From an uncultured Acidimicrobiales bacterium (GTDB lineage Bacteria > Actinomycetota > Acidimicrobiia > Acidimicrobiales > UBA8190): 64,000 bases of DNA. How positions within the stretch are numbered: the first letter of the stretch is position 1; each line of letters begins with the position of its first letter. The DNA lies in the NCBI GenBank assembly GCA_963811775.1, contig CAWESO010000019.1:122819-186818 (forward strand). The letters run 5' to 3'. This document shows, one piece after another, positions 1-53,714 of this stretch. The position numbers and the translations under genes were made by a program. The notes beneath the pieces are model-generated. The model had not been told where the DNA came from. It was given only the letters and a program-made list of their open reading frames with translations, and made no database searches.

Positions 1-521
1 GCCCGCATGGCGAGGCCCCACGGAGAGAAGCGGATGAACGCGGCCAGACCGAGAGCGACGACGGGCGCCACGACGAGCGTGACGACCTCTCCGGGCGGGA
101 AGAGGAACGTCCCGATGTGGAAGGACCAGTCGACGGGCACGGGAAAGGCCCGGAAGAGCTTCTTCGGGCGGATGAAGGGGAAGAGGGTGAAGAGGAACAG
201 CACCTGCGACAGGCCGATGGTGGCCACCATCACCATGACGCGCGGCCGGTTGAAGAGGCGGCGCAGGAGCAGCTCCGACAGCGCCCCGACCGCGGCGGCC
301 AACAGCAGGGCGGCGGCCAGCGCGGCCCAGTAGTTGATGCCGTAGTCGTAGTAGAGCTTGACCAGGAATACCGCGGCGACCACGCCCAGCTGGCCCTGGG
401 CGAAGTTGATCACCCGGTTGGTGCGGTAGATGAGGACGAGGCCCGTGGCCAAAAGGCCGTAGTTGAGGCCGAGGATGGCGCCCTCGATGACCACCGACGA
501 CGGGATCGACACCGCGATCAC
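1..521 (-). CDS. HAAT/LIV-type ABC transporter permease, LivH-like. Only the 5' part is present; the gene runs off the left window edge.
   Basis: Not in the ORF track because there is no stop in the window. My translation of the minus strand from GTG 521-519 reads VIAVSIPSSVVIEGAILGLNYGLLATGLVLIYRTNRVINFAQGQLGVVAAVFLVKLYYDYG... It has hydrophobic helices and the INFAQG motif typical of LivH/LivM permeases. The GTG overlaps the TGA (520-518) of the upstream ATPase (GTGA). Confidence 0.7.
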   Translation of the reverse strand, partial: MIAVSIPSSVVIEGAILGLNYGLLATGLVLIYRTNRVINFAQGQLGVVAAVFLVKLYYDYGINYWAALAAALLLAAAVGALSELLLRRLFNRPRVMVMVATIGLSQVLFLFTLFPFIRPKKLFRAFPVPVDWSFHIGTFLFPPGEVVTLVVAPVVALGLAAFIRFSPWGLAMR

Positions 522-1717
522 GCCGTTCCCCCGTCCTTTCCGTCTCCGTCCGCGGCCCTCGGGCTCTGTTCGTTCCCGCCGTTCCCGCCGTTCCCGCCGT
601 TCCCGCCCCCGCCCGGTCCGGCCACCCACAGGCCCTCGGCATGCGACGCCGGGGTGGTCGCAGGAGGGTCAGCGGCGCCGGAGGGTCTGGCCGCGGTGGT
701 CGGGCCCGGTGCCGCGCCGTCCGTCCCGCCCGGACCGCCCGTGCCGTCCGTCCCGCCCGGACCGCCCGTGCCGTCCGGACCGCCAGGACCGCCCGTGTCG
801 GCCGGTCCTGGGCCCGGGGCGTCGGGGTTGCCGGCGGTGGGTCGTGCGCGCGGCCCTCCTGGCGCCGGGGGCGTCGGCAAGACGAGGCCGGAGGCTCGCA
901 CCGTGGCACCGCCCGCCCCGGCCCCGTTGGCCCGGGTGGCGGCGGTAGCGCCGGTGGCGCCCGTGGACGAAGGATCGGCACCGGCCGCGGCGGTATGGGT
1001 GGCATCGGTGCCGAGCGCCGCGCCCACGCTGGCCAGGAACACGGGGCGAAGCAGGTCGTCGCGCGCCAGGAGATCGGTGATCGAACCATCGAAGCGAACC
1101 TCGCCGCGCTCGAGGAAGAAGGCGTGCTCGGCCAAGGTCATGGCGCGGTTCACGCTCTGCTCGACGAGGATCACGGTGGCCCCATCGGCGTTGACGCGCT
1201 TGACGATGTCCATGAGGCGCTCGACGGTCATGGGGGCGAGGCCGAACGCGAGCTCGTCGATCATGAGGAGGCGGGGTTTGCTCATCATGACGCGCGCCAG
1301 CGCCAGCATCTGCTGCTCGCCGCCCGACAACGTGCCCGCGGGCTGGTCGAGGCGGGGCTGCAACTCGGGGAACAGGCTGATGGCGTCGTCGAAGGCCGCC
1401 TTCGAGCGTGGCATCTCACGCCGGAACGAGTGGCCGCCGATGCGGAAGTTCTCCCGCACGCTCAGGCCGGGGAACGTCATCTTCCCCCCGACGAGCAGTG
1501 CCGCCCCGAGGTCGATGATCTGCTCGGGCTCGAGATAGGTGCAGTTGGCCCCGAAGATGCGGATGACCCCCCGGTGGGGGTGGTCCAGCCCGGCGACAGC
1601 CCGCAGCAGCGTGCTCTTGCCGGCCCCGTTCGTGCCCAGGAGCGCCACGATGTCGCCTTCGGGAACCTCGAGGTTGATGTCGAAGAGCACCTGCTGGTTG
1701 CCATAGTAGAAGTCCAT
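518..1717 (-). CDS. ABC transporter ATP-binding protein, LivF-like, with a ~165-aa Gly/Pro/Thr-rich C-terminal tail
   Basis: ORF track, 399 aa. Walker A GTNGAGKST, signature LSGGEQQML, Walker B LLMIDE. The NBD ends near RPVFLASVG and the rest is low complexity. The first beta-strand (..PALQIHN) lies upstream of the ATG in the same frame, so the true 5' end is probably further upstream (see finding at 1744-1750). Confidence 0.85.
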   Translation of the reverse strand: MDFYYGNQQVLFDINLEVPEGDIVALLGTNGAGKSTLLRAVAGLDHPHRGVIRIFGANCTYLEPEQIIDLGAALLVGGKMTFPGLSVRENFRIGGHSFRREMPRSKAAFDDAISLFPELQPRLDQPAGTLSGGEQQMLALARVMMSKPRLLMIDELAFGLAPMTVERLMDIVKRVNADGATVILVEQSVNRAMTLAEHAFFLERGEVRFDGSITDLLARDDLLRPVFLASVGAALGTDATHTAAAGADPSSTGATGATAATRANGAGAGGATVRASGLVLPTPPAPGGPRARPTAGNPDAPGPGPADTGGPGGPDGTGGPGGTDGTGGPGGTDGAAPGPTTAARPSGAADPPATTPASHAEGLWVAGPGGGGNGGNGGNGGNEQSPRAADGDGKDGGTA

Positions 1718-3234
1718 GTTGTGGATCTGCAGGGCCGGGATCTCCCCCCCGCCTTGCGGCGCTTCCCCTCGGCGTAGCGCTCGAGGACGTCCTCGATCAC
1801 GAGCGTGATGTCACCGCGCACGAAGCGCGAGCCCACGAGCAGGAGCACGCCGCCCACGGCGCATACCGGTCCGATCAAGGTGAGCGCGGTCGTGACGTTC
1901 GAGGCGTCGCTGATGGCGCCGAGCAGGATCCCGCCGGCGAAGCCGCCGAAGACCAAGGCGTAGACGCCGAAGAGCCCGAAGCAGATGGCCCGCATCTCCG
2001 GTGGGGCCGTCGCCGCCAGGGTCTGGAAGATGCAGATGGACAGCGGCGCCACCGCCGATTGCGCCAGGAATTGCAGGACGACCACCATCCACAGATGGGG
2101 CATGTACAGCGACAGGCTGTAGAGGCTGCCGAACACGGCGATGCAGACGCCGGCGACGACGAGGGGCTTCTCGGGGGCGCGCCGGAAGAGCTTGTCGCCC
2201 ACGACGAAGACCACCGGCAGCCCGAGGAACGACGACAGGCCGATGATCGAGAACACGTCGGCGCGGTGCGCCACCCCGAGGTGCCAGTGGCGCTGGAAGT
2301 ACAGCGAGCCGAACAGCGGGATGCCCGTGCCGGCGAACCCGAGGATGGCGACCGCCACGAGCTCGTAGTAGAGGGAGCGGATGCGCAGCAGGCGGGTGAC
2401 GGCCGAGCCCAGGAGGACCTTGGGGGCGTGCTCCTGCTCGGTCCCGATGTCCATCCCCGCGGCCTTCAGGATGTGACTCGACTCGTTGGCCCCCTTCTCC
2501 GGCTCCCGGATGAAGAAGATGGCCAGCGCCACGGGGACCCCGAGGACCGCCAGGGCCAGGGCCCAGCGCCAGTTGTGGGTCGCGGCGGCGATGTAGCCCA
2601 CGAGCAGGATCCCGATGGTCTGGGACACGGGGTCGTTCATGTTGTGCCAGGTGAAGACGCGCGCCCGGCCGTGGGTGGGATAGGCATCGGCCAGATAGGC
2701 GTTGTGCACCGTGTCGCTCGACCCCAGGCCGATGGCGGCGACCAGGTACAAGAACACGAACGGCCACACGTTGTGCACGAGGGCCATGAGCGGGACCGTG
2801 GCCGAGAAGATGAGCAGGGTGATGGCGGCCACGTTCTTGCGGCTGCCCCGGTCGGCGAACACCGCCACCGGCATCCCCCAGGCGATCTGGGCCACCGCGC
2901 CGACGAAGATCACCGCCCCCAGTCCGGCGTCGCTCAGGTGGAACGCGCTCTTGATCTCCGGGCCCAGGATGCCGATGCCGTTGACGACGGTGTCGGTGAC
3001 CATCGCCGCCACCGTGAGCAGGACCAGGGGTGCGAACCCGTGCTCGCGCAGGATGCCGATCAGCGGGGGAGGCTTGCCCTCGCCGGTGCCGGGCATGAGG
3101 GCCACATCGGCGACCGCCGCCTTGTCCCGGCTCTTGCTGACCGCGGCGGCGAGCAGCTCATCGGGGACCACGAAGTTGAACATGGGCTGTTCCCCATCGA
3201 ACATCGCCTGTTCCCCCACAAGCGGGTCGCCCAT
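1477..3234 (-). CDS. MFS transporter. About 495 aa are genuine. The last ~90 codons are out-of-frame read-through across the ATPase gene start.
   Basis: ORF track, 585 aa. About 12 hydrophobic helices and an MFS_1-like loop (ADRGSRKN). After ...VIEDVLERYAEGKRRKAGG the sequence becomes Arg/Ser/Thr-rich nonsense and overlaps 518..1717 in another frame. Confidence 0.8.
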   Translation of the reverse strand: MGDPLVGEQAMFDGEQPMFNFVVPDELLAAAVSKSRDKAAVADVALMPGTGEGKPPPLIGILREHGFAPLVLLTVAAMVTDTVVNGIGILGPEIKSAFHLSDAGLGAVIFVGAVAQIAWGMPVAVFADRGSRKNVAAITLLIFSATVPLMALVHNVWPFVFLYLVAAIGLGSSDTVHNAYLADAYPTHGRARVFTWHNMNDPVSQTIGILLVGYIAAATHNWRWALALAVLGVPVALAIFFIREPEKGANESSHILKAAGMDIGTEQEHAPKVLLGSAVTRLLRIRSLYYELVAVAILGFAGTGIPLFGSLYFQRHWHLGVAHRADVFSIIGLSSFLGLPVVFVVGDKLFRRAPEKPLVVAGVCIAVFGSLYSLSLYMPHLWMVVVLQFLAQSAVAPLSICIFQTLAATAPPEMRAICFGLFGVYALVFGGFAGGILLGAISDASNVTTALTLIGPVCAVGGVLLLVGSRFVRGDITLVIEDVLERYAEGKRRKAGGRSRPCRSTTWTSTMATSRCSSTSTSRFPKATSWRSWARTGPARARCCGLSPGWTTPTGGSSASSGPTAPISSPSRSSTSGRHCSSGGR

Positions 3235-3352: not shown

Positions 3353-4747
3353 TCAGGCCCGGTCCGGCTCCCCGGTCGCGGACGCGACCGTGAGCGGGCC
3401 GTAGGGGAGCACACCGAGCCGGGCGCCGCCGCCCGTGGCATCGAGAGCCTCAGCGACCGCATCCGTCACGTCTGCCACAGGCCGCAGGAAGGCGCCCCGG
3501 ACGTCGTCGTCGGTGAGGCCTTGGGTGTGAAGCCAGACGTCGGCCCGGCGCAGGACCCGGCCGAGGACCTGGGTCTGCCAGCGGTCCGTTTCCGACGGGC
3601 CCGTCGTCGCGTCGAGCGCGTCGGGGCCCGCGGCGCCGGCGAGCAGCCGCGCGAACGCGCCCCCGGCGGGCGTGCCGTCGGCGCACTCGGCCGCCATCAC
3701 GATGGTCCCGCCGGCGCGGACCACGCGCTCGGCCGCGGCCATGCCCTTCACGGCCTGGTACAGGTTGCGGTCGAGCGGATAGCCGCCGTTCGTGCTCAGC
3801 ACGACGTCGAAGGGCGCCCCCACCGTCTGCACCGACGTGCGCTCGACGAACCGGCACGCCGCGGCGTGCCCGGCCGGCAGCGGCCCGGCGAAGACCGCCG
3901 TCAGCTGGCGGCGCTGGTTGATGGCCACGTCGAGAGACAGCGCCGGCGGGGCCAGGGCCACCGCGGCGCGCACGAAGTCGTGGACGGGGTTGCCCTCGGT
4001 GACGAGCCAGGTGGCGTGCGGGTCCACGATGCGCCGGGGACTGTGCGCTTCGAGGATCGTCTCGAGTGCGGCCAGGCCCGGGCACGCCCCCTTGGGACCC
4101 CCGCTGAAGCCCGCGAAGAAATGGGGCTCGACGAAGCCGGTCAGGATTCGAAGGTCCGCTTCGACGTAGCGGCGGTCGATCCGTATGGGAACGCCGTCCA
4201 CCTCGCCGACCTCGACGTGGTCGGCCTCGGGCCCGTCGGCCTGGTGTTGACGCACGGTGTAGCGCCGTGCGATGTCCGGGCCCACGAGCTCGAGGACCTC
4301 CTCCGCCGTGGCGGCGCGATGGGTGCCGGTGGCGCACAGCAGGTCGACGCGGTCGGGACCGGCTCCCACCTGCTCGAGCTCGGCGAGCAGTGGGGGCAGG
4401 ACGGTGCGGTTGGGCATCGGTCTCGTGATGTCGGGGAACACCACCGCCACCCGCGGGCTTGGGCCCGCACCGTGACGCGCCACGGCGCGGGCGGCGTCCC
4501 GGACGAGTCGGGAGAGCGGCGGCCCCTCCACCGGCGCGCGCAGCGACTCGAGCACGGCGGCGGCCTCGTCGGGGAGGCCGGGCAATTCGGTGGCGGTGAC
4601 GACGACGGCGTCGTCGGGCACCGTGGCCACGATCCCGTCCCGGCCATAGGCCAATCGCACCTGTTTCACGTCGTGGCCCGCCCAGTCCGCATGGCCCGCC
4701 CAGTCCGCATGGCCCGCCCAGTCCGCATGGCCCGCCCGTTTCGCCAT
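3353..4747 (-). CDS. LarA-family nickel-pincer-cofactor-dependent 2-hydroxyacid racemase/epimerase (DUF2088). An alternative GTG start at 4669 is likely.
   Basis: This is the C-terminal 464 aa of the 601-aa ORF 3353..5158; the upstream part overlaps the kinase gene and is nonsense. VKQVRLAYGRDGIVATVPDD matches the usual LarA N-terminus. FVEPHFFAGFSGGPKG carries the Lys that tethers the NPN cofactor in L. plantarum LarA, with a His 16 residues later (ILEAHS). Confidence 0.8.
   Translation of the reverse strand: MAKRAGHADWAGHADWAGHADWAGHDVKQVRLAYGRDGIVATVPDDAVVVTATELPGLPDEAAAVLESLRAPVEGPPLSRLVRDAARAVARHGAGPSPRVAVVFPDITRPMPNRTVLPPLLAELEQVGAGPDRVDLLCATGTHRAATAEEVLELVGPDIARRYTVRQHQADGPEADHVEVGEVDGVPIRIDRRYVEADLRILTGFVEPHFFAGFSGGPKGACPGLAALETILEAHSPRRIVDPHATWLVTEGNPVHDFVRAAVALAPPALSLDVAINQRRQLTAVFAGPLPAGHAAACRFVERTSVQTVGAPFDVVLSTNGGYPLDRNLYQAVKGMAAAERVVRAGGTIVMAAECADGTPAGGAFARLLAGAAGPDALDATTGPSETDRWQTQVLGRVLRRADVWLHTQGLTDDDVRGAFLRPVADVTDAVAEALDATGGGARLGVLPYGPLTVASATGEPDRA
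4676..4729. repeat. 18-bp x3 perfect tandem repeat (gcccgcccagtccgcatg), plus a partial 4th copy reaching ~4737
   Basis: Read directly. On the minus strand it encodes (GHADWA)x3 if the ATG at 4747 is used. It is 5' UTR if the GTG at 4669 is used. Confidence 0.9.
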
Positions 4748-4808
4748 TTCATCGTTGCCATTGTCGCCGTTGTCGTCATCGCCGTCGTCGCCCTCTCGGT
4801 GTCTCGGG

Positions 4809-6362
4809 TCATGGAGCAAGGCCGATGACCGCGGCGGCCGCAGCATCGGCGCCGGGACGCAACGTCCGGTAGAGCGCCACCATCGCTGCCTCGGGCGTGA
4901 TCTCGGCGTCGACCGGGTCGAGACGGTCGAGATCGAGATGGTCGGGATCGAGGCCGCCTCTCTCGTCACCGATGGCGTGGGACACGAGCAGGGCGGCCCC
5001 AGCCGACGCCGCCTGGCCCGAACGGCGGTGCCGGGCCGGCAGCCCGGTGACGGCGGTGAGGACCTCGGTCCACAGCGGCATCGAGGCACCACCACCGCCG
5101 AGCATGAGGCCCACCGGGGCGACGGCACCTTTCCCTTGCGACCCCGCGGCTGCCTCAAGGCACCGGGTCACGTCCCACGCCACCGACTCCACGACGGCCC
5201 GCGTCATGTCCCCGACGTCGTGGGCGAGAGAAAGACCGACGAGGGCGCCACGTGCGGAGTCCCGCCACCACGGCGCCCGTGCCCCTCCGAACCAGGGGAG
5301 GACGACCGCTCCTTTGGCCCCCGGGGGGCTGGAGCGTGCCCGGTGCATGAGGGACTCGGCGTCGACTCCCGCCACGCCGGCCAGCCAACCGACGAGGGAC
5401 CCTGCCGCCGACAGGCCACCTTCGAGCAGCCATCCCTGGCGCGCGCCCCGGGTGACGATGAGGGCGTCGGGCACGCCATGGCCGAGGTCCGGCACGGGAA
5501 TCGACACGTTGGCGGTGGTCCCCCACGACACCATGGGCCACGACCCCGATGCGTCCGTGCCGAGGACCTCGCAGGAGCGGTCGCCGGCACCGATCACGAC
5601 GGGGATCCCGGCTCGCAGACCGAGCTCGCCCGCGGGGCCCTCGAGAAGCCCGCCCAACACCGTTTCCGAGGGTCGGGCCGACGGGAGAAGGTCGGCGACG
5701 GAGTCGACGAGCCCCGGGACGAGCGCGTCGGAATCCACCGCGGACCCCTGCGCGCCGTCGCTGCCGGCCAGCTCGGACAGCTCGGACAGCTCGGACAGCT
5801 CGAACAGTCCCGTGGCGGAGGCCAGTGTGTTGTCGGTGGCGACCTCTCCGGTGAGACGCCAGGCCAGAAGGTCCCGAGGGCCGAGCAACCACCGGGCGTC
5901 GGTGATCCTCTGTGGCTCGTGGCGCTCGAGCCATGTCACCTTGGCCGCCATCGAGCCGGCGTCGAGCGCCACACCGGTGCGTCGACGCACCGTCCGGGCG
6001 CCGTCGTCCCCGAAGGAGCGCGCGATGTCCTCGGCCTCTGTCCCCGCTCGCCGGTCGGACCACAACAGCGCGGGCCCGAGCGCCAGCCCTCCGGCGCTGA
6101 CGGGGACAAAGGTCTGGCGCGCCGCGGCGAAGCCGAGCGCCTCAACCGCCGCCAGCACCGCATCGGCCTGGCCACCGAGTGCGGAGCGGGCCGCGCCCAT
6201 GGCGGCCACCACCGAGTCCCACCACGAGGTCGGGTCCTGTTCGGCGCGGTTGTCGGGTCCGTAGTGGCAGTCGAGCGCGCTCCGGCCCGTGGCCACGGGG
6301 CCCTCGTCCCCCCACACCACCACCTTCGTGACGCTGGTCCCGAGATCGATGGTGAGGATCAC
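4809..6362 (-). CDS. FGGY-family carbohydrate kinase (xylulokinase-like)
   Basis: ORF track, 517 aa. N-terminal ILTIDLGTSVTKV (actin-fold phosphate-1 motif) and C-terminal MLGGGGASMPLW. The GTG start overlaps the aldolase-like stop... see next entry; more precisely, this gene's GTG start (6362-6360) overlaps the TGA of the upstream gene (GTGA). Confidence 0.85.
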   Translation of the reverse strand: MILTIDLGTSVTKVVVWGDEGPVATGRSALDCHYGPDNRAEQDPTSWWDSVVAAMGAARSALGGQADAVLAAVEALGFAAARQTFVPVSAGGLALGPALLWSDRRAGTEAEDIARSFGDDGARTVRRRTGVALDAGSMAAKVTWLERHEPQRITDARWLLGPRDLLAWRLTGEVATDNTLASATGLFELSELSELSELAGSDGAQGSAVDSDALVPGLVDSVADLLPSARPSETVLGGLLEGPAGELGLRAGIPVVIGAGDRSCEVLGTDASGSWPMVSWGTTANVSIPVPDLGHGVPDALIVTRGARQGWLLEGGLSAAGSLVGWLAGVAGVDAESLMHRARSSPPGAKGAVVLPWFGGARAPWWRDSARGALVGLSLAHDVGDMTRAVVESVAWDVTRCLEAAAGSQGKGAVAPVGLMLGGGGASMPLWTEVLTAVTGLPARHRRSGQAASAGAALLVSHAIGDERGGLDPDHLDLDRLDPVDAEITPEAAMVALYRTLRPGADAAAAAVIGLAP

Positions 6363-7276
6363 GCCGAGACGGAGCCCGCCGTGCCCGCGTCCGCGCCGGT
6401 GCCGGCGCGCACCGCGCCGGCGACGAGGCGCGCCATGGTGGCGGGCTCGGGGTCCTGGAAGACGACTCTCCCCACGGCCAGGCCGGCGGCCCCTCCAGCC
6501 ATGGCATCGCGGATCTCGTCCAGGACGAGCTCCCGCGATTCGCCCGCACCACCAGCACCACCCGCACCGCCCGCGCCGTCACCCGAAGCGGCGCGACGGG
6601 GACCACCGAGGAAGAGCACCGGAACCCCCACGCTGCCCACGATGCGCGCCACAGCGTCAATGCGTGCCGCGCCCGGCGCCACGTCGGGGACGGGCACCTT
6701 CAGGACCGGCGCGCCGAGGTCGTGGGCGACGACGGCGGCGAACACGATCGAGTCGGTGTCGCGCGCCACCTTGCCCGCGGTCCACGACAGGGGCTCGATG
6801 AGCGCGTCGAGACCCGACGACCGTGCCGATTCGAGCACCTTTCCCAACAGCTCCAGGGCGGGCGCGGTCAGGGGGTCGGCCATGTCGATGCGTGTCATGT
6901 GCTTGATGCCGGTCCAACCATCGGTCGAAGCCTGTTCGACGCTCGCCACGAGACGGTCGTCGAGCTCGAACGCGCTCCCCGCCAACCCGGTGCGGTTGAG
7001 GGAGAGATAAGTGCGGTGCCGGGCCTCGACCGCACCCGACGCGCGCAGGTCACGCAGGGGCTGGGTGGTGGCGAGGATGCCGTCGCAGAACTCGAGCGCG
7101 GCCGACAGCGACTGCAGGTACGGCGCGTAGGCCTCCACCGTGATCATGCCCCGGGCCCGGTGGTCGGCCGCCAGGATCACCGCCGGTGCGGCCAGGGGAC
7201 CGACGGGCCCGCGTCCCGCCCCGGGCCTCGGTGACGACGACGGCGACGACGACGGCGGCGGTGGCACCGACCTCAC
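6359..7276 (-). CDS. Class-I aldolase-like (beta/alpha)8 protein (DeoC/LacD/Cgl0159-like)
   Basis: ORF track, 305 aa. Contains VILAADHRARG and LKVPVP (candidate Schiff-base Lys strand), plus a Gly/Ala-rich insert. There are GTGA overlaps at both ends (7276/7273 and 6362/6359). Confidence 0.65.
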   Translation of the reverse strand: MRSVPPPPSSSPSSSPRPGAGRGPVGPLAAPAVILAADHRARGMITVEAYAPYLQSLSAALEFCDGILATTQPLRDLRASGAVEARHRTYLSLNRTGLAGSAFELDDRLVASVEQASTDGWTGIKHMTRIDMADPLTAPALELLGKVLESARSSGLDALIEPLSWTAGKVARDTDSIVFAAVVAHDLGAPVLKVPVPDVAPGAARIDAVARIVGSVGVPVLFLGGPRRAASGDGAGGAGGAGGAGESRELVLDEIRDAMAGGAAGLAVGRVVFQDPEPATMARLVAGAVRAGTGADAGTAGSVSA

Positions 7277-8169
7277 TCCGGCCCGGTCACTCCGGCCAGG
7301 TGGAGCACCACCTTGGCCAGCGCCGAGAAGTCCTCTCGCCCGTACCCCGCGGTCGACGCCGCCGTGAGGACTTGGCGGGAGGTGGCCGTGGTCGTCATGG
7401 GGACACCGGCGCGCGCCGCGTACGACAACGCCAGGTCGAGGTCCTTCGCCATGAGGTCGGTCATGAATCCTGGCTGCCAGCCGTTCGAGGCGGGACTGTC
7501 GGCGATGACGCCGGGAACGGGCAGCCGGGTGCGCACCGCGGTGCAGTCACCGGTCGAGTGCACGAGCACCTCGAGCAGCTTGGCCATGTCCACACCCGAG
7601 CGCACGGCCAGCGCGGTGGCCTCGGCCGTGGCCACCATCTGGGCTGCGTAGATGAGGTTGTTGCAGAGCTTCACGACCTGACCCATCCCCGGCCCGCCCA
7701 CGTGCACGATGAGGCCGGCCATGGGGTCGAGCGCGGCGCGGGCGTCCACGAGGGTGGTCGCGTCGCCGCCCACCATCAACGTGAGGGTTCCCTTGTTGGC
7801 CCCCACCGTGCCCCCTGACACGGGGGCGTCGAGGTAACGGGCGCCGGTCGCGGTGACCCGCGCGTGCTGGGCCCGCTCGACGTCGGGGTCGATGGTGGAG
7901 CAGTCCACGACGATCATGCCCGGCCCGAGCGCGGGGACCACGGCGTCGAGGACCTGCACGACGTCGGGGGAATTGGGGACACAGAGGATGAGGACCTCGC
8001 TGGCCCTGGCCACGTCGGTGACGGTGCCTCCGTCGATGGCGCCGAACGCCATCGCCTGGTCCACCGGTGGTCTGCTGCGCGACGCCACCGTGACCTGATG
8101 GCCTGCCGCCACGAGATTGCGGGTCATGGGCAGTCCCATGGCTCCGAGGCCGATGAAACCGAGCTTCAC
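7273..8169 (-). CDS. NAD(P)-dependent beta-hydroxyacid dehydrogenase (3-hydroxyisobutyrate / tartronate-semialdehyde reductase family)
   Basis: ORF track, 298 aa. Rossmann motif GFIGLGAMGLPM, plus DAPVSGG and KLCNN family motifs. Confidence 0.85.
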   Translation of the reverse strand: MKLGFIGLGAMGLPMTRNLVAAGHQVTVASRSRPPVDQAMAFGAIDGGTVTDVARASEVLILCVPNSPDVVQVLDAVVPALGPGMIVVDCSTIDPDVERAQHARVTATGARYLDAPVSGGTVGANKGTLTLMVGGDATTLVDARAALDPMAGLIVHVGGPGMGQVVKLCNNLIYAAQMVATAEATALAVRSGVDMAKLLEVLVHSTGDCTAVRTRLPVPGVIADSPASNGWQPGFMTDLMAKDLDLALSYAARAGVPMTTTATSRQVLTAASTAGYGREDFSALAKVVLHLAGVTGPE

Positions 8170-8264
8170 GAGGACCTCCGTTGTGATTGTCGGTCAGCGG
8201 TCATGCCGATCGAGGAGCAGGCGCATCGTCGATCGGCACGATCGTCGCTGGGCACGCGCGTCGA

Positions 8265-10921
<2,657 letters not shown>

Positions 10922-39497: not shown

Positions 39498-40442
39498 TCA
39501 CCAGACACGCAGGCTGCCCTCCGGGCTCCAACCTTCGAGAATCTCGCGGCCTCGGGCCTTGTCCAGGGCCAGGTCGAACGCCACCACGACTGCGGTAGCG
39601 ACGGGGAAACCGCCACGAGAAGCGGCCGGCGCCAGGGACAGGGCGTAGCGGGACGGGCAGACGGCGATCTCTGCCGCCGTCCAACCACCCGACGCTCCGT
39701 AGGCAGATGCGATGGCTGCGACGTCGGCGTCGTCGGCGACATAGAGCTGCGGCCAGTTCGTGCCCGCTGCAATCGGAGCCCCGAGTGCCAGCGTCCCCGC
39801 CGTTCCCGACAGTCGGTAGCGGTCGCCTGGTTCGGGCATCGGCTCAGTAGAGAGCGGTATCCAACGCGGCCTCCATCTGTCGGCGGCGTCCCAGAACAGC
39901 TCGGGCACGACTGGGCGGTTCCCGCGCTCCACCAGACCTTCACGACGAAGGGCGGTGAGAATCTCCGACACCCTGCCCGGTGATCGACCGATCTTCCGAG
40001 CCAGTTCGTTGACCCCGATGGATGTATCCGGAGACGTGAGGAGCGCGACGCAGACGTCGAAGCCCGTGCCACTCAAGATGTCAGCAACTCGAGGTGGAGG
40101 GGGTGCCGCGGTCCTCGGTCCGTCGGCGTTCACATACAGGCCAGGCGCCCTGATCCATAAGTGGCCTCGCCGGTCCAGCCAGGCGACGTCAGCGTCACTC
40201 AGACGTTGCCTTGCGACCGCCGAGATTCGATCGGCGACAACCAGCATCGGCGCCACGCCGGATCGCTGCTGGCCCTCGGCGATGAGGGCCGCATCGCCCT
40301 CGCGGACAACGCTCGTCTCCTTCACGACCAGGTCCGCACCACCGACACGAACCCCACCGACTCGTGATCGCTCGAAGTCGACGCCGGCCGCGACCAAGGC
40401 CCGCTCCAGATCATCATTCTCTACTCGTGGATCCACGGACAT
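39498..40442 (-). CDS. Hypothetical protein with a central winged-HTH (MarR/IclR-like), divergent from the Fic gene
   Basis: ORF track, 314 aa. wHTH stretch IGVNELARKIGRSPGRVSEILTALRREGLVER. I cannot assign the N- and C-terminal domains. Confidence 0.5.
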   Translation of the reverse strand: MSVDPRVENDDLERALVAAGVDFERSRVGGVRVGGADLVVKETSVVREGDAALIAEGQQRSGVAPMLVVADRISAVARQRLSDADVAWLDRRGHLWIRAPGLYVNADGPRTAAPPPPRVADILSGTGFDVCVALLTSPDTSIGVNELARKIGRSPGRVSEILTALRREGLVERGNRPVVPELFWDAADRWRPRWIPLSTEPMPEPGDRYRLSGTAGTLALGAPIAAGTNWPQLYVADDADVAAIASAYGASGGWTAAEIAVCPSRYALSLAPAASRGGFPVATAVVVAFDLALDKARGREILEGWSPEGSLRVW

Positions 40443-40491
40443 AGGGTTAGGCAGTTATCAACCAACTTGGTATTTGTTATTATACGACTCA
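40443..40491. promoter_or_regulatory. AT-rich divergent intergenic region (probable promoters of 39498..40442 and the Fic gene)
   Basis: atagggttaggcagttatcaaccaacttggtatttgttattatacgactcaatg is by far the most AT-rich 50 nt in the window. It contains TTGGTA..N..TATTATAC-like elements. Confidence 0.45.
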
Positions 40492-41685
40492 ATGATGGAA
40501 ACAAACCGAAAATCAACCGTGTTGTTTCAAACCCCGGAGGCCGACGAAATCGAGCTTCAGGTCCTAACCCAGATCGAGGATCTGAAGAAGAAGCTCCGCT
40601 GGCAGCTCAGCGAGCCGCGCCGCTGGTTCGGCTCATTGCGGCGTATGCAGTTCGCCAAAGCGGTTCAGGGCTCGAACAGCATCGAGGGGTTTGACGCCAC
40701 CCTCGATGATGCTGCCGCCATCGATCTCGGCGAGGAGCCCCTTGATGCCGATGAAGAGACTCACCTTGCCGTGAAGGGGTATCGGGACGCAATGACCTAC
40801 GTCGTTCAGTTGGCTGGTGAGCCCGACTTCACATACTCAGAGCAGCTTCTGAAGAGTTTGCATTTCATGATGACCAGCTATGACCTGAAGCTGCGCCCCG
40901 GGCTTTGGCGAGCCGGGTCCATCTACGTCCGAAGAGACGAATCAGAAGAGATCGTCTACGAAGGTCCGGACGTTGACCTAGTGCCCGACCTCATGAGTAA
41001 GCTCGTTGATAGTCTCAACGTGTCCGACGAGGCTCCCCCGATGGTGCGTGCCGCTATGGCCCACCTCGATCTGGTCATGGTGCATCCATTCAGGGATGGC
41101 AACGGACGAATGGGTCGGGCTTTGCAGACCCTCGTGCTGGCCCGAGAAGGGATTCTCTCCCCTGTCTTTTGCAGTATTGAGGAGTATTTGGGACGCAACA
41201 CCGAGGAGTACTACGAGGTTTTGGGCAGAGTAGGAGCGGGGTCATGGCATCCCAGCCGAGATGCCCGGCCGTGGGTGCGATTCAATTTCTCAGCTCATCT
41301 CCGCCAAGCCAAGACCCTCCTGCGGCGTGTCAAAGAGAGCGAACAGCTCTGGGACAGATTGGAAAGGGCGATCACACCCTCCTCTGTGCCTGATCGAACG
41401 ATCCCTGTCCTATGGGACGCAGCCATGGGATATCGAGTTCGGAACGCGACGTACAGAGCGATCTTTGAGGAGATCGGGGAGCCCATTAGTGAGGCAGTCG
41501 CTGGCAGGGATTTGCGCCAGCTCGTGGAGGCCGGACTTCTCATTCCGAAGGGCGAGCGCCGCGGTCGGCATTACCTCCGTAGTCCCGAGTTGCGGAGCTA
41601 TCGCGAGGCCATCGTTCAGGCGCGAGATCCCCGGGATGATTCCGACCCCTTTGCTGCGCGGTCTGACCGCCGCGCTTCCACCTAA
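40492..41685 (+). CDS. Fic-family protein (AMPylase-type), class II with an N-terminal inhibitory helix and a C-terminal wHTH-like domain
   Basis: 3' part of ORF 39955..41685; start at ATG 40492 (MMETNRK). Fic core motif HPFRDGNGRMGR. Inhibitory motif (S/T)xxxE(G/N) present as SNSIEG upstream of the core. Confidence 0.9.
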   Translation: MMETNRKSTVLFQTPEADEIELQVLTQIEDLKKKLRWQLSEPRRWFGSLRRMQFAKAVQGSNSIEGFDATLDDAAAIDLGEEPLDADEETHLAVKGYRDAMTYVVQLAGEPDFTYSEQLLKSLHFMMTSYDLKLRPGLWRAGSIYVRRDESEEIVYEGPDVDLVPDLMSKLVDSLNVSDEAPPMVRAAMAHLDLVMVHPFRDGNGRMGRALQTLVLAREGILSPVFCSIEEYLGRNTEEYYEVLGRVGAGSWHPSRDARPWVRFNFSAHLRQAKTLLRRVKESEQLWDRLERAITPSSVPDRTIPVLWDAAMGYRVRNATYRAIFEEIGEPISEAVAGRDLRQLVEAGLLIPKGERRGRHYLRSPELRSYREAIVQARDPRDDSDPFAARSDRRAST

Positions 41686-41922
41686 CCTCCGCGGCCTTCC
41701 GGGCAGAATCGGACCGCTCTTCGGTTGTCATGCCTGCGGTTCTCGCCTTGCCACCCTTCTGGCCTCCCTTGCGCCCCAATTCCCTCCCTTGCGGTCCAAT
41801 TCGACCGCGACCGGGTCCTTCGCTTCATAGGGATGGGCTTCAGGCTCATGGGTCGTGGTCTGCACGACAACGGCCGCGGCCATCGAGTTCAGATCGCGGG
41901 GCATGCTTGCCCGCTTGATCAT
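41540..41922 (-). pseudogene. Small KGG-motif protein gene (..DPVAVELGRKGGQKGGKARTAGMTTEERSDSARKAAEVRW..) disrupted by an imperfect 20-bp tandem duplication
   Basis: ORF 41728..41922 ends ...DPVAVELDRKGG and then turns to nonsense. ORF 41540..41779 (TTG start) begins GRKGGQKGGKAR... in another frame. The units at 41761-41780 and 41781-41800 match at 16/20 positions. Removing one unit restores a 120-codon frame. Confidence 0.4.
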
Positions 41923-41994
41923 TCGACCGGCCTACGTTTCAGGCCCCCGGCGTCAACGCCTCGGCCGATTCAAACTTACCCACTACCGGTCGGG

Positions 41995-42132
41995 TTAACG
42001 ACAGTGTTCGGTTCCGATCGTGTGCTGTCCGTTTATTACGCAGAAAACGGATTTGGCCGGTCGATCGGCGTCAGCAAGGTCGTCGGCGAGGTTCTCAGCA
42101 AACTCTGCGCGACACAATTTTCGAGTGTTCAT
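41995..42132 (-). CDS. Hypothetical 45-aa protein
   Basis: This is the internal ATG of ORF 41995..42255, preceded by GGAGGA at a 9-nt spacing. Product: MNTRKLCRAEFAENLADDLADADRPAKSVFCVINGQHTIGTEHCR. No family recognised. Confidence 0.3.
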   Translation of the reverse strand: MNTRKLCRAEFAENLADDLADADRPAKSVFCVINGQHTIGTEHCR

Positions 42133-42271
42133 TGCTACGAGTCCTCCGCTCCATGTCCGCACTTCGCTCGCTGCCGTGATGCCGGCGCCAGGCCTGAACG
42201 AAGGAGCGGCGGTGGCGGTGCGCTCTGGTTCAGTGAGAAACCCGAGTTGCCACATGACGTCACTCCTCGTA

Positions 42272-42340
42272 GTCTCCCCACGTTAAGTGGGGAGACCATC
42301 TCCAAGAGAAGACTGATCCGGGGGGGGTTTTGATGGTCTC
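42272..42340. other. Nested inverted repeats. One is a perfect 10-bp stem (GTCTCCCCAC gttaa GTGGGGAGAC, 42272-42296). The other is a 9-bp pair, GAGACCATC (42292-42300) with GATGGTCTC (42332-42340), flanking a G8T4 tract.
   Basis: Read directly. The element lies in non-coding, lower-GC DNA between the small minus-strand ORFs and the first Tad-associated gene. Confidence 0.7.
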
Positions 42341-42474
42341 AAGCCGAGCGAGTACGTTACGTGGTCACAGAACCGTAACGCGCGCGCAAACAAACAGTCG
42401 TATCGGAGTCGACCCCCACGGCGTGGTCTCCAAATGGATCGGCATTCCGTTCATTCGGACGAACGGGACGTCCG

Positions 42475-43377
42475 ATGGCTGACAGGCACAGCGCGCTCAG
42501 GTCCCGGTCCCGGAGGATGTGGATCGGGATCGCCTTGGTGGTCTTTGTCGCCTCGCAGGGGGCATTCGCGGCGTGGGCAGCAACGACGTCGAGCTCGGCT
42601 TCCGACGGTGGAGGCACCGTCAGGGTCGGTGCGGCCAGTCAAAGCTCGACACCCGGTCGGACGGCACGTCGAGGCCCCATCAGGAGCGCGAGCTCTGGCT
42701 TGGCCTGTACGTACGTTCCACTCCCCGCGAAGGATGCCGCGACGATTGGACCGGGCGGTCCGACGCCTGGGAGCTGGTTTTTTGTCAAATGTCCCGGCAG
42801 GACCCTGACGATCTACAACGGCGCCATTTCATGGTTCCCGTCGGCGCCTGCAACCGCGCCGTCGACAGCGGTTTCGCCCAGCGCACTGGCCACGCGAGCA
42901 GCGGATTCCCTGACCCTTCCGCCGCCCGCCGCGAGCGTGAACCCGACCGCGTTCAGCATCGTGAATTTGGCGACATGGCTCTGGATCGATCCTCAGATCT
43001 GGCACCCGTTCAGAGCATCGGCGACGGCAGGAGGAGTGACCGCGACGGCCGTAGCCGTGCCGGACACCGTGTCGTGGTCGATGGGAGACGGGCACATCGT
43101 CACATGCGACGGTCCCGGGTCTCCGTATCAGCCGACGATCCCGCCCGACGCTCAATCGACTGACTGTTCGTATACCTACCGCACGTCGTCTGCCGGCCAG
43201 CCCAGCAGTGACGGCGATCCGAACGACGACGCTTTCACGGTCACAGCGACGATCACGTGGACAGTGAGCTGGACCTCCACTGGGTCCACAGGTGGCGGGG
43301 TCCTGCCGCCCCTTCAAACCAGTTCGACGATTCCGATACGCGTCGAACAGGTCGAATCCATCGGAACCGCGGGCTAA
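42475..43377 (+). CDS. Secreted or membrane-anchored hypothetical protein, first gene of the Tad cluster
   Basis: ORF track, 300 aa. N-terminal RSRSRRMWIGIALVVFVASQGAFAAWA (signal or anchor). The C-terminal domain has conserved-looking Trp and Cys residues (NLATWLWIDPQIW, VSWSMGDGHIVTCDGPGSPY, STDCSYTY). It ends 23 nt before cpaB. Confidence 0.55.
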   Translation: MADRHSALRSRSRRMWIGIALVVFVASQGAFAAWAATTSSSASDGGGTVRVGAASQSSTPGRTARRGPIRSASSGLACTYVPLPAKDAATIGPGGPTPGSWFFVKCPGRTLTIYNGAISWFPSAPATAPSTAVSPSALATRAADSLTLPPPAASVNPTAFSIVNLATWLWIDPQIWHPFRASATAGGVTATAVAVPDTVSWSMGDGHIVTCDGPGSPYQPTIPPDAQSTDCSYTYRTSSAGQPSSDGDPNDDAFTVTATITWTVSWTSTGSTGGGVLPPLQTSSTIPIRVEQVESIGTAG

Positions 43378-43400
43378 CCGCAAAACGCGCCGCCATCGTC

Positions 43401-44123
43401 ATGTCCACGATCATCAACCGCCAAGCCGCGAACCAGCAGACGTCAGACCCTCCTCGATTCCTCGGGACCGGCTATCGCCGTCGGCCGATCCTCGCGGTCG
43501 CGTCCGTGGTCCTGATGACATCCTGTGTTGCGGTATTCACCAGCGTCTACCTGCATGCTGGGAAGAAAGTCGCCGTCCTGGCCTTGGCTCGTGACGTCCC
43601 AGAGGGACAGCCGATCACAAGAAACGATCTCTCGGTGGTGGGCGTCGCGTTCTCCCGAGGCTTGACTCCGATCCTGGCCCAAGACGCGAGCCGTGTCGTC
43701 GGCCAAACGGCGGCCGTCTCGCTGGTGCGAGGGACGCTGGTCACGCAAGCCGAACTCGCTGACCGCGGAGAACCATCCAATGGTTCCGCGATTGTGGGGG
43801 TGGCGACAAAGGTTGGTCAGCTCCCGGCGGGTGGAGTGGCCGATGGTGACACGGTGGATGTCGTCCTCACAGGATCCCTGAGCACGCTCACGGATGGATC
43901 ACCTGATGGTGGATCGTCGGATGCGTCATCGCCCGCTGGGGCAGTAGAGATCGGTGGCATTTTGGCTCAGGGAGCCACGGTCACTGATGTGGCCCAGCCC
44001 ACGTCTTCAGATCCGGACACGGTTGTCGTGTCCGTTTCGATCCGGTCCTCGTTAGCCCCACTTGTCGCAAGCGCCTCCGCGGCTGGACAGGCCGCTCTCG
44101 TGCTGGTCGCGCCCAACGCATGA
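43401..44123 (+). CDS. cpaB: Flp pilus assembly protein CpaB/RcpC-like (SAF domain)
   Basis: 3' part of ORF 43257..44123; start at ATG 43401. N-terminal TM segment ILAVASVVLMTSCVAVFTSVYL, followed by a SAF-like region ALARDVPEGQPITRNDL. Confidence 0.75.
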   Translation: MSTIINRQAANQQTSDPPRFLGTGYRRRPILAVASVVLMTSCVAVFTSVYLHAGKKVAVLALARDVPEGQPITRNDLSVVGVAFSRGLTPILAQDASRVVGQTAAVSLVRGTLVTQAELADRGEPSNGSAIVGVATKVGQLPAGGVADGDTVDVVLTGSLSTLTDGSPDGGSSDASSPAGAVEIGGILAQGATVTDVAQPTSSDPDTVVVSVSIRSSLAPLVASASAAGQAALVLVAPNA

Positions 44124-44953
44124 CGTTGATTGCATTCTGCTCGGGCAAGGGTTCACCTGGAGTCTCGACATTGGCATGCGTGGCCGGGGCTGTATGGCCC
44201 TCGAACAGGCCCATCGTGCTGGCCGAATGTGATCCCTCGGGCAATGATCTCGCGGCGCGCTTCGGGCTATCTCCCCGGATCGGCATGACGAGCCTGGTCC
44301 TCGCCCATCGACACCGCGAGCACGCTGAACCAACGTTCGACGCCCACTTGCAGTCTCTGCCGGGGGGTCTTGAAGTGCTGGTTGGCCCGGTGAACCCGGA
44401 CGCATCGGGCAGCCTGGACACGGAGTTGAGCACAGTGGGAGTGGCCATCTTCCCGAAGGCAGTCGACATCCTTGTCGATTGCGGGAGAGTCCTGGGCGGC
44501 ACGGCCGGTCAGTTAGCGATCTTGCAGTCAGCTGATCGTGTCGTGGTCGTGAGCCGGCCAGATATCTCCGACCTTGCGCATGCCCTATGGACGCTTGATC
44601 TTGTTCGGGATCTGGCCCCTAATGCCGAGGCCTCATTCGTACTCGTCGGGTCGGGTCGATTCGGATTCGCCGAGATCGAGCAGGCACTTGGAGTTGCGCC
44701 TCTCGGGGTGATCCCCCTCGACGCGAAATCGGCCGCGATGGTGTGCGGGCTACCGGGCAGAGCCAAACGATTCGCCCGGAGTGCCCTTGTGGATGCCGCA
44801 CGACAGCTGGTGGACCGGCTGATCCCTCCCACCACTCGAGACGCCGTCAACTCCGAGATTGAGGAGACAAGCCAGCACCCAAAGTCGATGACCCTTCCCG
44901 TGTTGAGCCACAGCCTGGAGTCTTCGGCTTGCTCCAAAGGTGATCCCCCGTGA
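44120..44953 (+). CDS. ParA/MinD-fold TadZ/CpaE (Ssd)-like pilus localisation ATPase with a deviant Walker A
   Basis: ORF track, 277 aa. Contains IAFCSGKGSPGVSTLA (deviant P-loop) and VLVDCG (Walker B-like). The ATGA overlaps cpaB. Confidence 0.7.
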   Translation: MTLIAFCSGKGSPGVSTLACVAGAVWPSNRPIVLAECDPSGNDLAARFGLSPRIGMTSLVLAHRHREHAEPTFDAHLQSLPGGLEVLVGPVNPDASGSLDTELSTVGVAIFPKAVDILVDCGRVLGGTAGQLAILQSADRVVVVSRPDISDLAHALWTLDLVRDLAPNAEASFVLVGSGRFGFAEIEQALGVAPLGVIPLDAKSAAMVCGLPGRAKRFARSALVDAARQLVDRLIPPTTRDAVNSEIEETSQHPKSMTLPVLSHSLESSACSKGDPP

Positions 44954-46347
44954 TGTCGACCGATCACCTGACGTCGTTGGTGGGGAGGCTTCGCGTCGAG
45001 GTTGCCGATGACCTGTCTGCAGTCACCGGACACGAGTTGGGGATCGATGATCGTCGCGAGCTCGCTCGAACACTGACTTTGGCTCGCCTCGAACGCCTGG
45101 CGGCGGAGACGGTCGGAGCAGGTGACAAACCGCTCGGAGTGGCAGAGGAGCAGCGTGTCGCCCGAGCCGTGCTGGACGCCCTGTTCGGCCTGGGACGCCT
45201 GCAATCACTCATCGATCAGCAAGACATCGAGAACATCGACGTGAACGGATGCGACTGTGTGTGGGTCACCTACGCGGACGGGATGAAGGAACGTGTCGAT
45301 CCCGCAGCCGACTCGGATGCCGAGTTGGCCGAGATCATCCGGTCGGCGGCAGCCCGCTTCGGTCTCTCAGAACGACGATTTGACGTCTCTCACCCGGAGT
45401 TGGACCTGCGCCTCCCTGACGGAAGTCGCCTCTCGGCACTGATGTCGGTCGTCGGTCGGCCTGTTGTGTCGATCCGACGTCACCGGTACGTCGATCTCAC
45501 GCTGGAGGATCTTGTGGAGATGGGCGGGCTCGACCCGACTCTGTCGAGCTTCCTGGCCGCTGCCGTTCGAGCCCGGAAGAACATCGTCATCGGTGGCGCG
45601 ATGAACTCTGGCAAGACCACGTTGGTACGGGCGTTGGCTTCTGCCATCCCTCCCCGAGAACGAGTCGTGACAATCGAACAGGCCTTCGAGCTTGGGCTCG
45701 ATTCGATTCCAGATCGACATCCCGACCTCGTCGCCCTCGAGGCTCGACCCGCGAACGCGGAAGGAGAGGGGCAGATTTCTATGGCGCGGCTTGTGCGAAG
45801 AGCGCTACGAATGAATGCCGACCGGGTGATCGTGGGCGAGGTGCTTGGTGACGAAGTCCTTCCCATGCTCAACGCCATGAGCCAGGGTCGCTCAGGGTCG
45901 ATGTGCACCATTCATGCCGACTCATCGCTTGGGATCTTCCGTCGATTGGCTTCCTATGCGATTCAAGCGCCAGAGCACCTTCCCGTGGAGTCCACCAATC
46001 TGCTCATTGCAGGGGCAATCCATTTTGCCGTCTTCGTCGAGGTCGCCGACATCGACACACCTTCGGTCGATATGCGCTACCTGAGCGGCTGGCAAAAGGA
46101 TGTACTCACTCAGGGGCGTGAATCTGGTCGCGTTCGATTCGAGGCTCTGAAGAGACGCCGTTTAGTCTCCTCCGTCCAAGAAGTTGTTGGGTCAGAAGGT
46201 CTGAACGTGATTTCGAACGAGGTCTATCGCGCCAACTCCGACGGCTCGATATCTCAGGTCGCACCACTGCGGACTGCAACTCTGGAGGAGCTGGTCAGAC
46301 ACGGATTCGAACCGTCCTTGCGAAGTTCAGAGGTCGCATCGTGGTGA
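44950..46347 (+). CDS. tadA: CpaF/TadA-family type II/IV secretion ATPase
   Basis: ORF track, 465 aa. Walker A GGAMNSGKTT, Asp-box and Walker B RVIVGEV, His-box GSMCTIHA. Confidence 0.95.
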   Translation: MMSTDHLTSLVGRLRVEVADDLSAVTGHELGIDDRRELARTLTLARLERLAAETVGAGDKPLGVAEEQRVARAVLDALFGLGRLQSLIDQQDIENIDVNGCDCVWVTYADGMKERVDPAADSDAELAEIIRSAAARFGLSERRFDVSHPELDLRLPDGSRLSALMSVVGRPVVSIRRHRYVDLTLEDLVEMGGLDPTLSSFLAAAVRARKNIVIGGAMNSGKTTLVRALASAIPPRERVVTIEQAFELGLDSIPDRHPDLVALEARPANAEGEGQISMARLVRRALRMNADRVIVGEVLGDEVLPMLNAMSQGRSGSMCTIHADSSLGIFRRLASYAIQAPEHLPVESTNLLIAGAIHFAVFVEVADIDTPSVDMRYLSGWQKDVLTQGRESGRVRFEALKRRRLVSSVQEVVGSEGLNVISNEVYRANSDGSISQVAPLRTATLEELVRHGFEPSLRSSEVASW

Positions 46348-48124: not shown

Positions 48125-48203
48125 TAGATGACGAACGGGGTGTCGGGGGATGGGTTGGAGTGCAACAGAACAGAGAAAACGGAGAGGAAGGGAAGGGCTA
48201 GCC

Positions 48204-48392
48204 ATGTTCGTTCAGCTCAGAGGCCTGTGGGCCTATGCGTCGGCCAGATGGATGGTGACGACACGCGGAGAGGAGGGAAGCGTCGTCGAAAAGGTCATCC
48301 TCACCGCTGTGTTCGCCGCTCTTGCCATCGCCGTGGGTGCGATCATCGTCGCCAAGGTGATGGACAAGGCGAACTCGATCAACCTGAACTAG
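48204..48392 (+). CDS. flp: Flp/Fap-family pilin precursor
   Basis: Internal ATG of ORF 48150..48392, preceded by the purine-rich GGAGAGGAAGGGAAGG. Product: MFVQLRGLWAYASARWMVTTRGEEG|SVVEKVILTAVFAALAIAVGAIIVAKVMDKANSINLN (leader, Gly, Glu-containing motif, hydrophobic helix). Confidence 0.8.
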   Translation: MFVQLRGLWAYASARWMVTTRGEEGSVVEKVILTAVFAALAIAVGAIIVAKVMDKANSINLN

Positions 48393-52626: not shown

Positions 52627-52806
52627 AGCATGGTGCGCTCATCTCGGCTATGGGGCGCAGGAAAACATCAGGGAGGCCGGGGAATCCGGGGAATGTCTCC
52701 GAGCAGGGCTCCGGTGAGCTTGCTGGAGAGGTCTTGTGCAAGGTCAATGCTCGAGCATGACGCTCGCCGCCAGAGGGTGAGCGACAGATGAGGAGAGCAT
52801 GGACCG

Positions 52807-53238: not shown

Positions 53239-53248
53239 TCGACTCGAG

Positions 53249-53649: not shown

Positions 53650-53714
53650 GAACCCTGGGCGCCCCGCCGCGGACGTGGTTTGCGGCCGGTGGCGGCAGAA
53701 GGCGTCGGCTTTGC

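Follow-up and report, generated by a model that had tools for sequence, protein, structure and literature searches.

Major facilitator superfamily (MFS) carriers and ATP-binding cassette (ABC) transporters are the two largest transporter superfamilies, and textbooks keep them apart as secondary and primary active transport. Can one gene encode both? A locus in an uncultured Acidimicrobiales bacterium (GTDB lineage UBA8190) raises this question. It lies at the start of a 64,000-nucleotide (nt) stretch of contig CAWESO010000019.1 (assembly GCA_963811775.1, positions 122,819 to 186,818), hereafter the window, where an MFS permease frame and a LivF-like ABC ATPase frame meet on the minus strand at a run of seven G. 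A sequence-only reading of this stretch had offered three causes: an under-called homopolymer hiding a real fusion, a slipped-strand ON/OFF site, or a recent pseudogene. We conclude that positions 518-3234 of the minus strand read as a single gene for a predicted MFS-LivF fusion of ~905 amino acids (aa), with one G missing from a G8 tract. The missing base is most probably a homopolymer under-call in a long-read metagenome-assembled genome (MAG), an artefact to which we assign a probability of about two in three (0.65).

The window has a GC content of 68.8% and contains nine G or C runs of at least 7 nt, among them the plus-strand C7 at 1744-1750, which is G7 in the direction of the genes. The open reading frames (ORFs) around it were found as the sequence-only reading had described them. 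The permease ORF runs on the minus strand from an ATG at 3234 through the tract to a stop at 1477 (585 aa), and its last ~88 codons are Arg/Ser/Thr-rich, reading GGRSRPCRSTTWTSTMATSRCSS. No homologue was found for this out-of-frame tail (1477-1743, minus strand, 88 codons and the stop), which by its translation and its GC content at third codon positions (GC3) is a frameshift by-product, non-coding in that frame. The LivF-like ATPase ORF extends from an ATG at 1717 to 518 on the same strand (399 aa). Its frame is open back to a stop at 1811-1813 with no ATG, GTG or TTG before 1717, and 5' of the ATG it reads ...GGGEIPALQIHN-M. As called, the two ORFs overlap by 241 nt. Their starts lie 1517 nt apart (3234-1717), which is 2 mod 3, and inserting one G into the tract gave a single 905-aa ORF, reading ...VIEDVLERYAEGKRRKAGGEIPALQIHNMDFYYG..., in which Pfam recognized MFS_1 at residues 74-424 (3.2e-31) and ABC_tran at residues 518-661 (2.6e-25).

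The high-GC3 coding signal changes frame at the G7 tract. When the orthologue from the related locus L002 was used as a tblastn query, the fusion gene alone was split, between frames -2 and -1, with the break at 1744-1768. The N-terminal part of the fusion (1751-3234, minus strand, frame A), comprising a putative Spinster-like MFS domain with 12 transmembrane (TM) helices and a cytoplasmic helical extension of TM12, was covered in one frame (L002 residues 1-497 against 3234-1744, 89% identity). The LivF/UrtE-like nucleotide-binding domain (NBD; 1004-1743, minus strand, frame B) begins with the strand beta1 sequence IPALQIHNM, and orthologue residues 490-742 aligned to 1768-1004. The window holds 46 homopolymer runs of at least 6 nt, and only the G7 tract coincides with an unexplained frame change on the same strand. 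A C7 at 55526-55532 was considered as a second frameshift and rejected; it lies 50 nt before a normal GTGA junction between acyl-CoA dehydrogenase and SDR genes. The expectation that a start at ATG 1717 would truncate the ATPase was also borne out. Homology to 1JI0 begins at residue 501 of the orthologue, seven residues before the ATG position, and in an AlphaFold2 (AF2) model of an orthologue strand beta1 spans residues 502-511. An ATPase that began at ATG 1717 would therefore lose its first strand.

Does the locus then encode one protein or two? More than 120 proteins, 730-871 aa long, matched the repaired protein in a homology search, with 70-93% identity over 98-100% of the query, and the 120 best homologues were aligned with it (position counts are out of 121 sequences). 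Each of the 120 carries both PF07690 and PF00005, and none of them has a gap across the MFS-NBD junction. The junction is among the best-conserved stretches, DITLVIEDVLERYAEGKRRxxGGxIPALQIHN[L/M]DFYYG. At the position of ATG 1717 the alignment has Leu in 94 sequences, Met in 25 and Val in two, and we regard this codon (1715-1717, minus strand) as an internal Met codon. No Shine-Dalgarno-like sequence was seen on reading the 5-12 nt before it, and no promoter-like or terminator-like site was found at the junction. The named top homologues are all from Acidimicrobiales MAGs; they are labelled ‘ABC-type branched-chain amino acid transport ATPase component / sugar phosphate permease’ by the Joint Genome Institute (JGI) and ‘ATP-binding protein’ or ‘MFS transporter’ by NCBI. 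The spread in homologue length results from a variable C-terminal tail. In the window this tail (521-1003, minus strand, with the stop TGA at 518-520) is ~160 aa of Gly/Pro/Thr/Ala-rich low complexity and consists partly of in-frame tandem repeats, detected with TRF as 3.4 copies of 27 nt at 712-804 and 4.1 copies of 9 nt at 571-607.

At the nucleotide level, five related loci, among them L001 (87% identical), L002 and L009 in blastn alignments, each matched the window with one 1-nt gap, precisely at the tract (1744-1750, minus strand). The Gly-Gly pair at the junction is encoded in relatives by GGG GGA, GGC GGG or GGC GGC, and three relatives have an in-frame G7 (GCC GGG GGG GAG/GCG/GAC). If intact, the junction in the window would be GCG GGG GGG GAG, a G8 encoding A-G-G-E. 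To survey the family, one genome per GTDB species was scanned with the junction-flanking peptides DITLVIED and LQ[IV]HN[LM]DF as patterns, and relatives of the fusion were found to be encoded at 306 or more species-representative loci. ORF continuity and disruption were counted in the best 80 of the 306, almost all labelled as Acidimicrobiia MAGs; a single ORF extends from the MFS domain through Walker A in 78 of them. Contiguous MFS plus ABC_tran homologues are thus abundant, as expected of a genuine fusion restored by one G, and orthologous loci do not encode separate MFS and ATPase genes; the refutation proposed in the sequence-only reading fails on both counts. Taken at face value, the annotation describes an MFS transporter gene whose product ends in an odd tail and, translated separately from it, an ABC ATPase gene that starts at ATG 1717. 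In favour of this view, both called ORFs do exist, and NCBI/ENA have a record of the 585-aa product (P0312), from a single contig of 352,135 nt. Two such genes would overlap by 241 nt, the MFS tail would be without homologue, the ATPase would lack beta1 and a ribosome-binding site and start at a non-conserved ATG, and the relatives would still be contiguous across the junction. Because the relatives are contiguous, the signals of a separate gene are absent and beta1 precedes the Met, we reject the two-gene reading, which we hold to be extremely improbable.

Why, then, is one G missing? The ratio of nonsynonymous to synonymous substitution rates (dN/dS) against L001 amounts to 0.083 in the MFS half and 0.058 in the NBD half, with similar values against L006 and L002 (overall range 0.06-0.13), which indicates that both halves of the fusion are under strong purifying selection. 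No further stops occur downstream of the frameshift in the repaired frame, and the five upstream genes (GH4, dehydrogenase, aldolase, FGGY kinase and LarA-like) match their L002 orthologues in single frames by tblastn. Since neither the gene nor its neighbours show decay, a real inactivation would have to be very young. The break is either a homopolymer under-call or a very recent mutation.

What favours the under-call is that several long-read MAGs of the clade also carry a broken copy of this gene. A sister protein, P0380, encoded at L009 (ENA ERZ25039538 contig_68621), has a different +1 insertion in the same gene. L005 (ERZ25039540 contig_12149), which belongs to the same ENA accession series, is MFD05512.bin.2.134, a long-read MAG of the Microflora Danica (MFD) project. 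The fusion gene is disrupted at 6 of the 48 loci from long-read ‘MFD ... contig_’ MAGs vs 0 of the 32 from short-read MAGs, and by our own arithmetic the one-sided hypergeometric probability that all six fall in the MFD group is ~0.04. Four of the six have clear internal breaks (L026, L054, L078 and L085) and two have aberrant 3' ends (L014 and L061). The MFD MAGs are presumably Nanopore assemblies, and Nanopore consensus sequences under-call long G/C homopolymers. Within 11 kb of L009, moreover, the FGGY kinase is split, the fusion gene frameshifted and LivG truncated, and LivHM could not be called; indel errors in such assemblies can hide multi-domain architectures. In L054 (MFD01872.bin.2.291), an in-frame stop was observed at about aa 460, just before the DITLVIED linker, with the frame continuing beyond it; a substitution error or else a true nonsense mutation in that MAG would account for it.

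Several points weigh against an under-call. The G7 may be the true sequence: only one of the 46 homopolymer runs of at least 6 nt breaks a reading frame, and the neighbouring genes are intact over 9.7 kb. So clean a window fits a single real mutation as well as a single error, and that it comes from the same long-read project as L005 and L009 is inferred from source labels. The alternative is a very recent slipped-strand deletion from G8 to G7, which would make the gene a young pseudogene in this population. The homopolymer is lineage-specific and mutable, as relatives use GGC or GGA codons or an in-frame G7; the rest of the window has no other homopolymer-linked frame breaks, so that no generally error-ridden assembly is evident; and the in-frame stop of L054, in the same gene, means that natural gene loss may occur. 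Set against this are an NBD dN/dS of 0.06 with no relaxation and no downstream stops, which would make the event extremely recent, the conservation of the gene in at least 306 species-level genomes, and the confinement of frame breaks to long-read MAGs (6/48 vs 0/32). We consider a recent pseudogene rather unlikely. If the G7 were true, the importer would probably be silenced too, without another LivF. Genome and metagenome contig collections were searched for conspecific sequence, with exact flanks and a tract of variable length, and no match was found.

A third explanation would leave the gene functional with the G7 as it stands, either by programmed recoding (a -1 ribosomal slip or transcriptional slippage on the tract, giving a low, regulated level of fusion) or by ON/OFF phase variation. 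The heptamer G_GGG_GGG does formally fit X_XXY_YYZ in the MFS frame (gcG GGG GGG), and a -1 slip would restore precisely the sequence of the orthologues, ...KAGGEIPALQ.... The 94 nt that follow the tract nevertheless fold no better than shuffled sequences (z = 0.30), so that no stimulatory structure is apparent, and Rfam gave no match anywhere in the window. None of the ~200 relatives examined requires a shift, and most are without the tract. Of the hallmarks of programmed -1 frameshifting the heptamer is present, whereas downstream structure and conservation of the shift are absent. As for phase variation, the collections scanned held no conspecific genome that could show length variation, and the switch is unsupported because relatives are without a long tract or have an in-frame G7. 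We consider recoding or switching very improbable. Among the three causes originally offered, the under-call is thus the most likely, the recent pseudogene possible, and the slipped-strand ON/OFF site one that nothing supports.

What kind of ATPase has been joined to the carrier? The NBD motifs of the repaired protein, Walker A GTNGAGKST, signature LSGGEQQ and Walker B LLMIDE, are invariant in the clade alignment. With the orthologue as query, the top PDB match of the NBD was 1JI0, a solved LivF-like NBD (5e-50), and the NCBIfam models UrtE (4e-53, 180 bits, cut-off 285.8) and LivF (3e-48, 164 bits, cut-off 441) were matched. By these scores the NBD is LivF-like and, being below both equivalog cut-offs, not an equivalog of LivF or UrtE. 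VEQ replaces the H-loop His in the fused NBD, as in LivF, and the LivG domain of triple fusions (see below) has IEHD. The same pattern, VEQ in LivF and IEHD in LivG, is that of E. coli.

The fold of the MFS domain is supported by the PF07690 match, by a helical AF2 prediction over residues 58-494 with a predicted local distance difference test score (pLDDT) mostly of 80-94, and by a hydropathy scan with 11 segments. A family profile searched against the PDB matched HnSpns (6E8J, 8e-42) and SPNS1 (4e-35), then the D-galactonate transporter DgoT and SPNS2 (4e-25). With the window sequence alone HnSpns was again the top match, but at 1.9e-5. On this profile evidence the domain is Spinster-like, and HnSpns, SPNS1 and SPNS2 are its closest solved MFS relatives, with which it has in common the 12-TM fold, motif A and the charge-relay Asp (HnSpns D142). 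Motif A (pattern G-x-x-x-D-R-x-G-R-K/R, between TM2 and TM3), sequence AVFADRGSRKNV, is invariant in the clade as FADRGSRK, with D128, R129 and R132 invariant in 42 sequences, and its counterpart in the C-terminal half, GDxxFRR (346-352), is invariant or nearly so. The retention of these elements and of the charge-relay Asp argues that the domain still cycles between conformations. We know of no Spinster protein fused to an NBD. A stand-alone MFS relative, P0182, adjoins a Fic protein on a 2.6-kb contig and is uninformative.

Differences from the Spinster carriers were found at the switch residues. HnSpns is a stand-alone proton-coupled carrier whose proton-switch and substrate residues are the buried Asp41, Arg42, Arg122 and Glu129 (PMC9440201). 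The window clade has F/I/V, G/V/S, Y/F and L/S/Y at these positions, all uncharged, with the assignment at positions 41 and 42 differing between hidden Markov model and MAFFT alignments; in distant fused clades the Glu129 position is Lys, Arg or Gln. A motif WHNxxDP (W196-H197-N198..D201-P202, window ~2630-2650), near-invariant in the window clade, was noted in a predicted helix that we read as TM5, and Spinster proteins have no charged residues at its position. In place of the Spinster switch residues that were lost, the motif may serve this clade as its own binding or coupling site.

For the connection between the domains we used the AF2 model of the orthologue P0004 (88% identical; pLDDT 80.6, predicted TM-score 0.75). 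TM12 continues as one helix over residues 454-494, from which a loop of 7 residues leads to strand beta1 of the NBD, so the connection as modelled is rigid rather than a floppy tether. A Foldseek search with the whole model found no PDB chain matching both domains and returned NBD matches only. ABC exporters among the structural matches were rejected for a root-mean-square deviation above 19 Å.

With which partners would such a protein work? The fusion is followed by a permease gene cut by the window edge (3-521, minus strand), whose N-terminal 173 aa match Pfam BPD_transp_2 (1.6e-13); residues 1-170 of the L002 permease align to 512-3 with 81% identity in tblastn. Its start is a GTG at 521, overlapping the fusion stop as GTGA, or a GTG at 512, 5 nt past the stop. 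The sequence-only reading had named a LivH-type permease here. A permease it is, but in relatives the corresponding product is a 680-aa protein with two BPD_transp_2 stretches, that is, LivH and LivM fused, followed by LivG with a BCA_ABC_TP_C motif and, a few genes on, by a Peripla_BP_6 binding protein. This arrangement of LivHM, LivG and a type-I binding protein was found at L001, L002, L005, L006 and L008. No other LivF was present in the operon at the loci examined. The fused NBD is therefore the operon's only LivF and must pair with LivG in a complete binding-protein-dependent importer.

Upstream, the gene order GH4, beta-hydroxyacid dehydrogenase, DeoC/Cgl0159-type aldolase, FGGY kinase and LarA-like gene, then the MFS-LivF fusion, is conserved in L001, L002, L005 and L006. 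The LarA-like gene (3353-4669, minus strand; Lar_N plus LarA_C by Pfam) lies directly upstream of the fusion, as synteny with L001, L002, L005 and L009 and a single-frame tblastn match show. The catabolic cluster as a whole spans 3353-9611 and is also seen at L001, L002, L005 and L009; its dehydrogenase has NAD_binding_2/11 domains, its LarA-like protein is of the nickel-pincer racemase/epimerase family, and in relatives genes for TauD, a CoA-transferase and an esterase follow further downstream. The importer substrate is probably a sugar-derived acid, a guess from these neighbouring catabolic genes.

By its composition the system belongs to the LIV/HAAT family of binding-protein-dependent ABC importers (TC 3.A.1.4), here unusual in bearing an additional MFS domain. 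As in E. coli LivFGHM-J/K and in UrtABCDE, a LivF/UrtE-like NBD is accompanied by BPD_transp_2, LivG (BCA_ABC_TP_C) and Peripla_BP_6 partners. Unlike E. coli LivF, the window's LivF bears an N-terminal 12-TM MFS domain of ~500 aa. LivH and LivM form one chain here, and in some lineages LivG is fused to LivF or LivHM. The genomic context is one of sugar and acid catabolism, not of amino-acid genes.

What the MFS domain adds can be framed as a proposal. From the operon context, the fused NBD would pair with LivG under LivHM, hydrolyse ATP and drive binding-protein-dependent uptake. The MFS domain would lie next to LivHM and serve as an accessory permease or gate in the membrane, and its conformational cycle might be mechanically linked to the NBD via the TM12 helix seen in the model. 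It could provide a second pathway, for product release or low-affinity substrate entry, act as a gate or regulator, or be an ATP-driven carrier. We favour an accessory permease or gate, with low confidence. A hybrid machine, in which ATP-driven closure of the LivF-LivG dimer would be passed on along the rigid TM12 helix to power or switch the MFS domain while the same cassette runs classical LivHM import, is speculative and in our judgement quite unlikely. The loss of the Spinster proton-switch residues would be in keeping with a carrier that has become independent of proton coupling. Without the HnSpns proton-coupling charges the MFS domain may not work like a standard Spinster carrier, and the mechanical coupling suggested here draws on a monomer AF2 model and on conservation. 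By analogy with TMD0, the domain may instead be a purely structural anchor.

Each known parallel differs from the fusion in some respect. In the arsenite pump a secondary-type carrier, ArsB, gains ATP drive via an associated cytoplasmic ATPase; ArsA is not an ABC NBD, it binds ArsB non-covalently, and the pump includes no complete ABC importer. The TMD0 domain of ABCC proteins and of TAP is likewise an extra N-terminal membrane domain on an ABC subunit, but there a bundle of 4-5 helices is attached to a transmembrane domain, and here a full MFS fold to an NBD. Sensor kinase-MFS fusions (TC 2.A.1.34, listed in PMC3924187) combine an MFS domain with a cytoplasmic domain, as here, but without an ABC component. 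No publication describing or testing an MFS-LivF or MFS-NBD fusion was found in the literature searched, and as far as these searches reach the earlier view that the architecture has not been characterised holds. The architecture itself is already in public databases, with both domains annotated by JGI and with RefSeq records from isolates.

The interest accordingly lies in the conserved MFS-LivF fusion rather than in the window's own copy. A covalent and, as modelled, rigid MFS-NBD fusion is kept under purifying selection in at least 306 species-level genomes of abundant soil Acidimicrobiia, and it is found in cultured Ilumatobacter and Jiangella as well. Such conservation implies a functional coupling of the two kinds of transport machine, undescribed as far as we found, and the culturable hosts make it directly testable. 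For annotation, the locus illustrates how a single homopolymer indel produces a stand-alone ‘MFS transporter’ and a truncated ‘ABC ATPase’ and thereby hides the architecture in long-read MAGs.

How far does the association extend? MFS domains only 25-35% identical to that of the window are also fused to a LivF-type NBD, in proteins of 700-750 aa. Triple fusions of MFS, LivF and LivG have 999-1020 aa, and the gene for the 1020-aa one (L008, 8001-11063) lies between LivHM and binding-protein genes. The isolate Ilumatobacter fluminis encodes a putative lipoprotein, an MFS-LivF protein (WP_166657336.1) and a LivHM-LivG fusion (916 aa; L003, 12118-14868). Jiangella alba (WP_069109893.1), J. muralis and Jiangella sp. 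DSM 45060 likewise encode the fusion, which through these carriers reaches beyond the Acidimicrobiia. The MFS-LivF association is old and variable in form. A tendency of the whole importer to collapse into two or three polypeptides was observed. An apparent fusion of a binding protein with an MFS domain, P0260 (L004, 10001-12571), was rejected: many genes on its ENA long-read contig are fragmented, no NBD lies between MFS and permease, and the protein is probably a frameshift artefact that joins adjacent genes. A second, P0135, was set aside on suspicion, having the same layout and source type. If true, such fusions would need an odd number of TM helices.

Two further features of the window were noted. 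Directly upstream of the LarA-like gene, at 4674-4737, there is a perfect 18-nt tandem repeat in 3.6 copies (TGGCCCGCCCAGTCCGCA), which lies in the short gap that separates the FGGY kinase stop (4809) from the LarA-like start (4669). At 40000-54000, 14 kb have a GC content of 60-64%, vs ~70% elsewhere, with a weak GC3 frame signal and a row of plus-strand genes. These encode a Fic-domain protein (39955-41685), a T2SSE-type secretion ATPase (44950-46347), two T2SSF-type membrane proteins (46341-48124) and a 969-aa ORF with no Pfam match (49717-52626). This stretch looks like a horizontally acquired Tad/Flp-pilus-like island.

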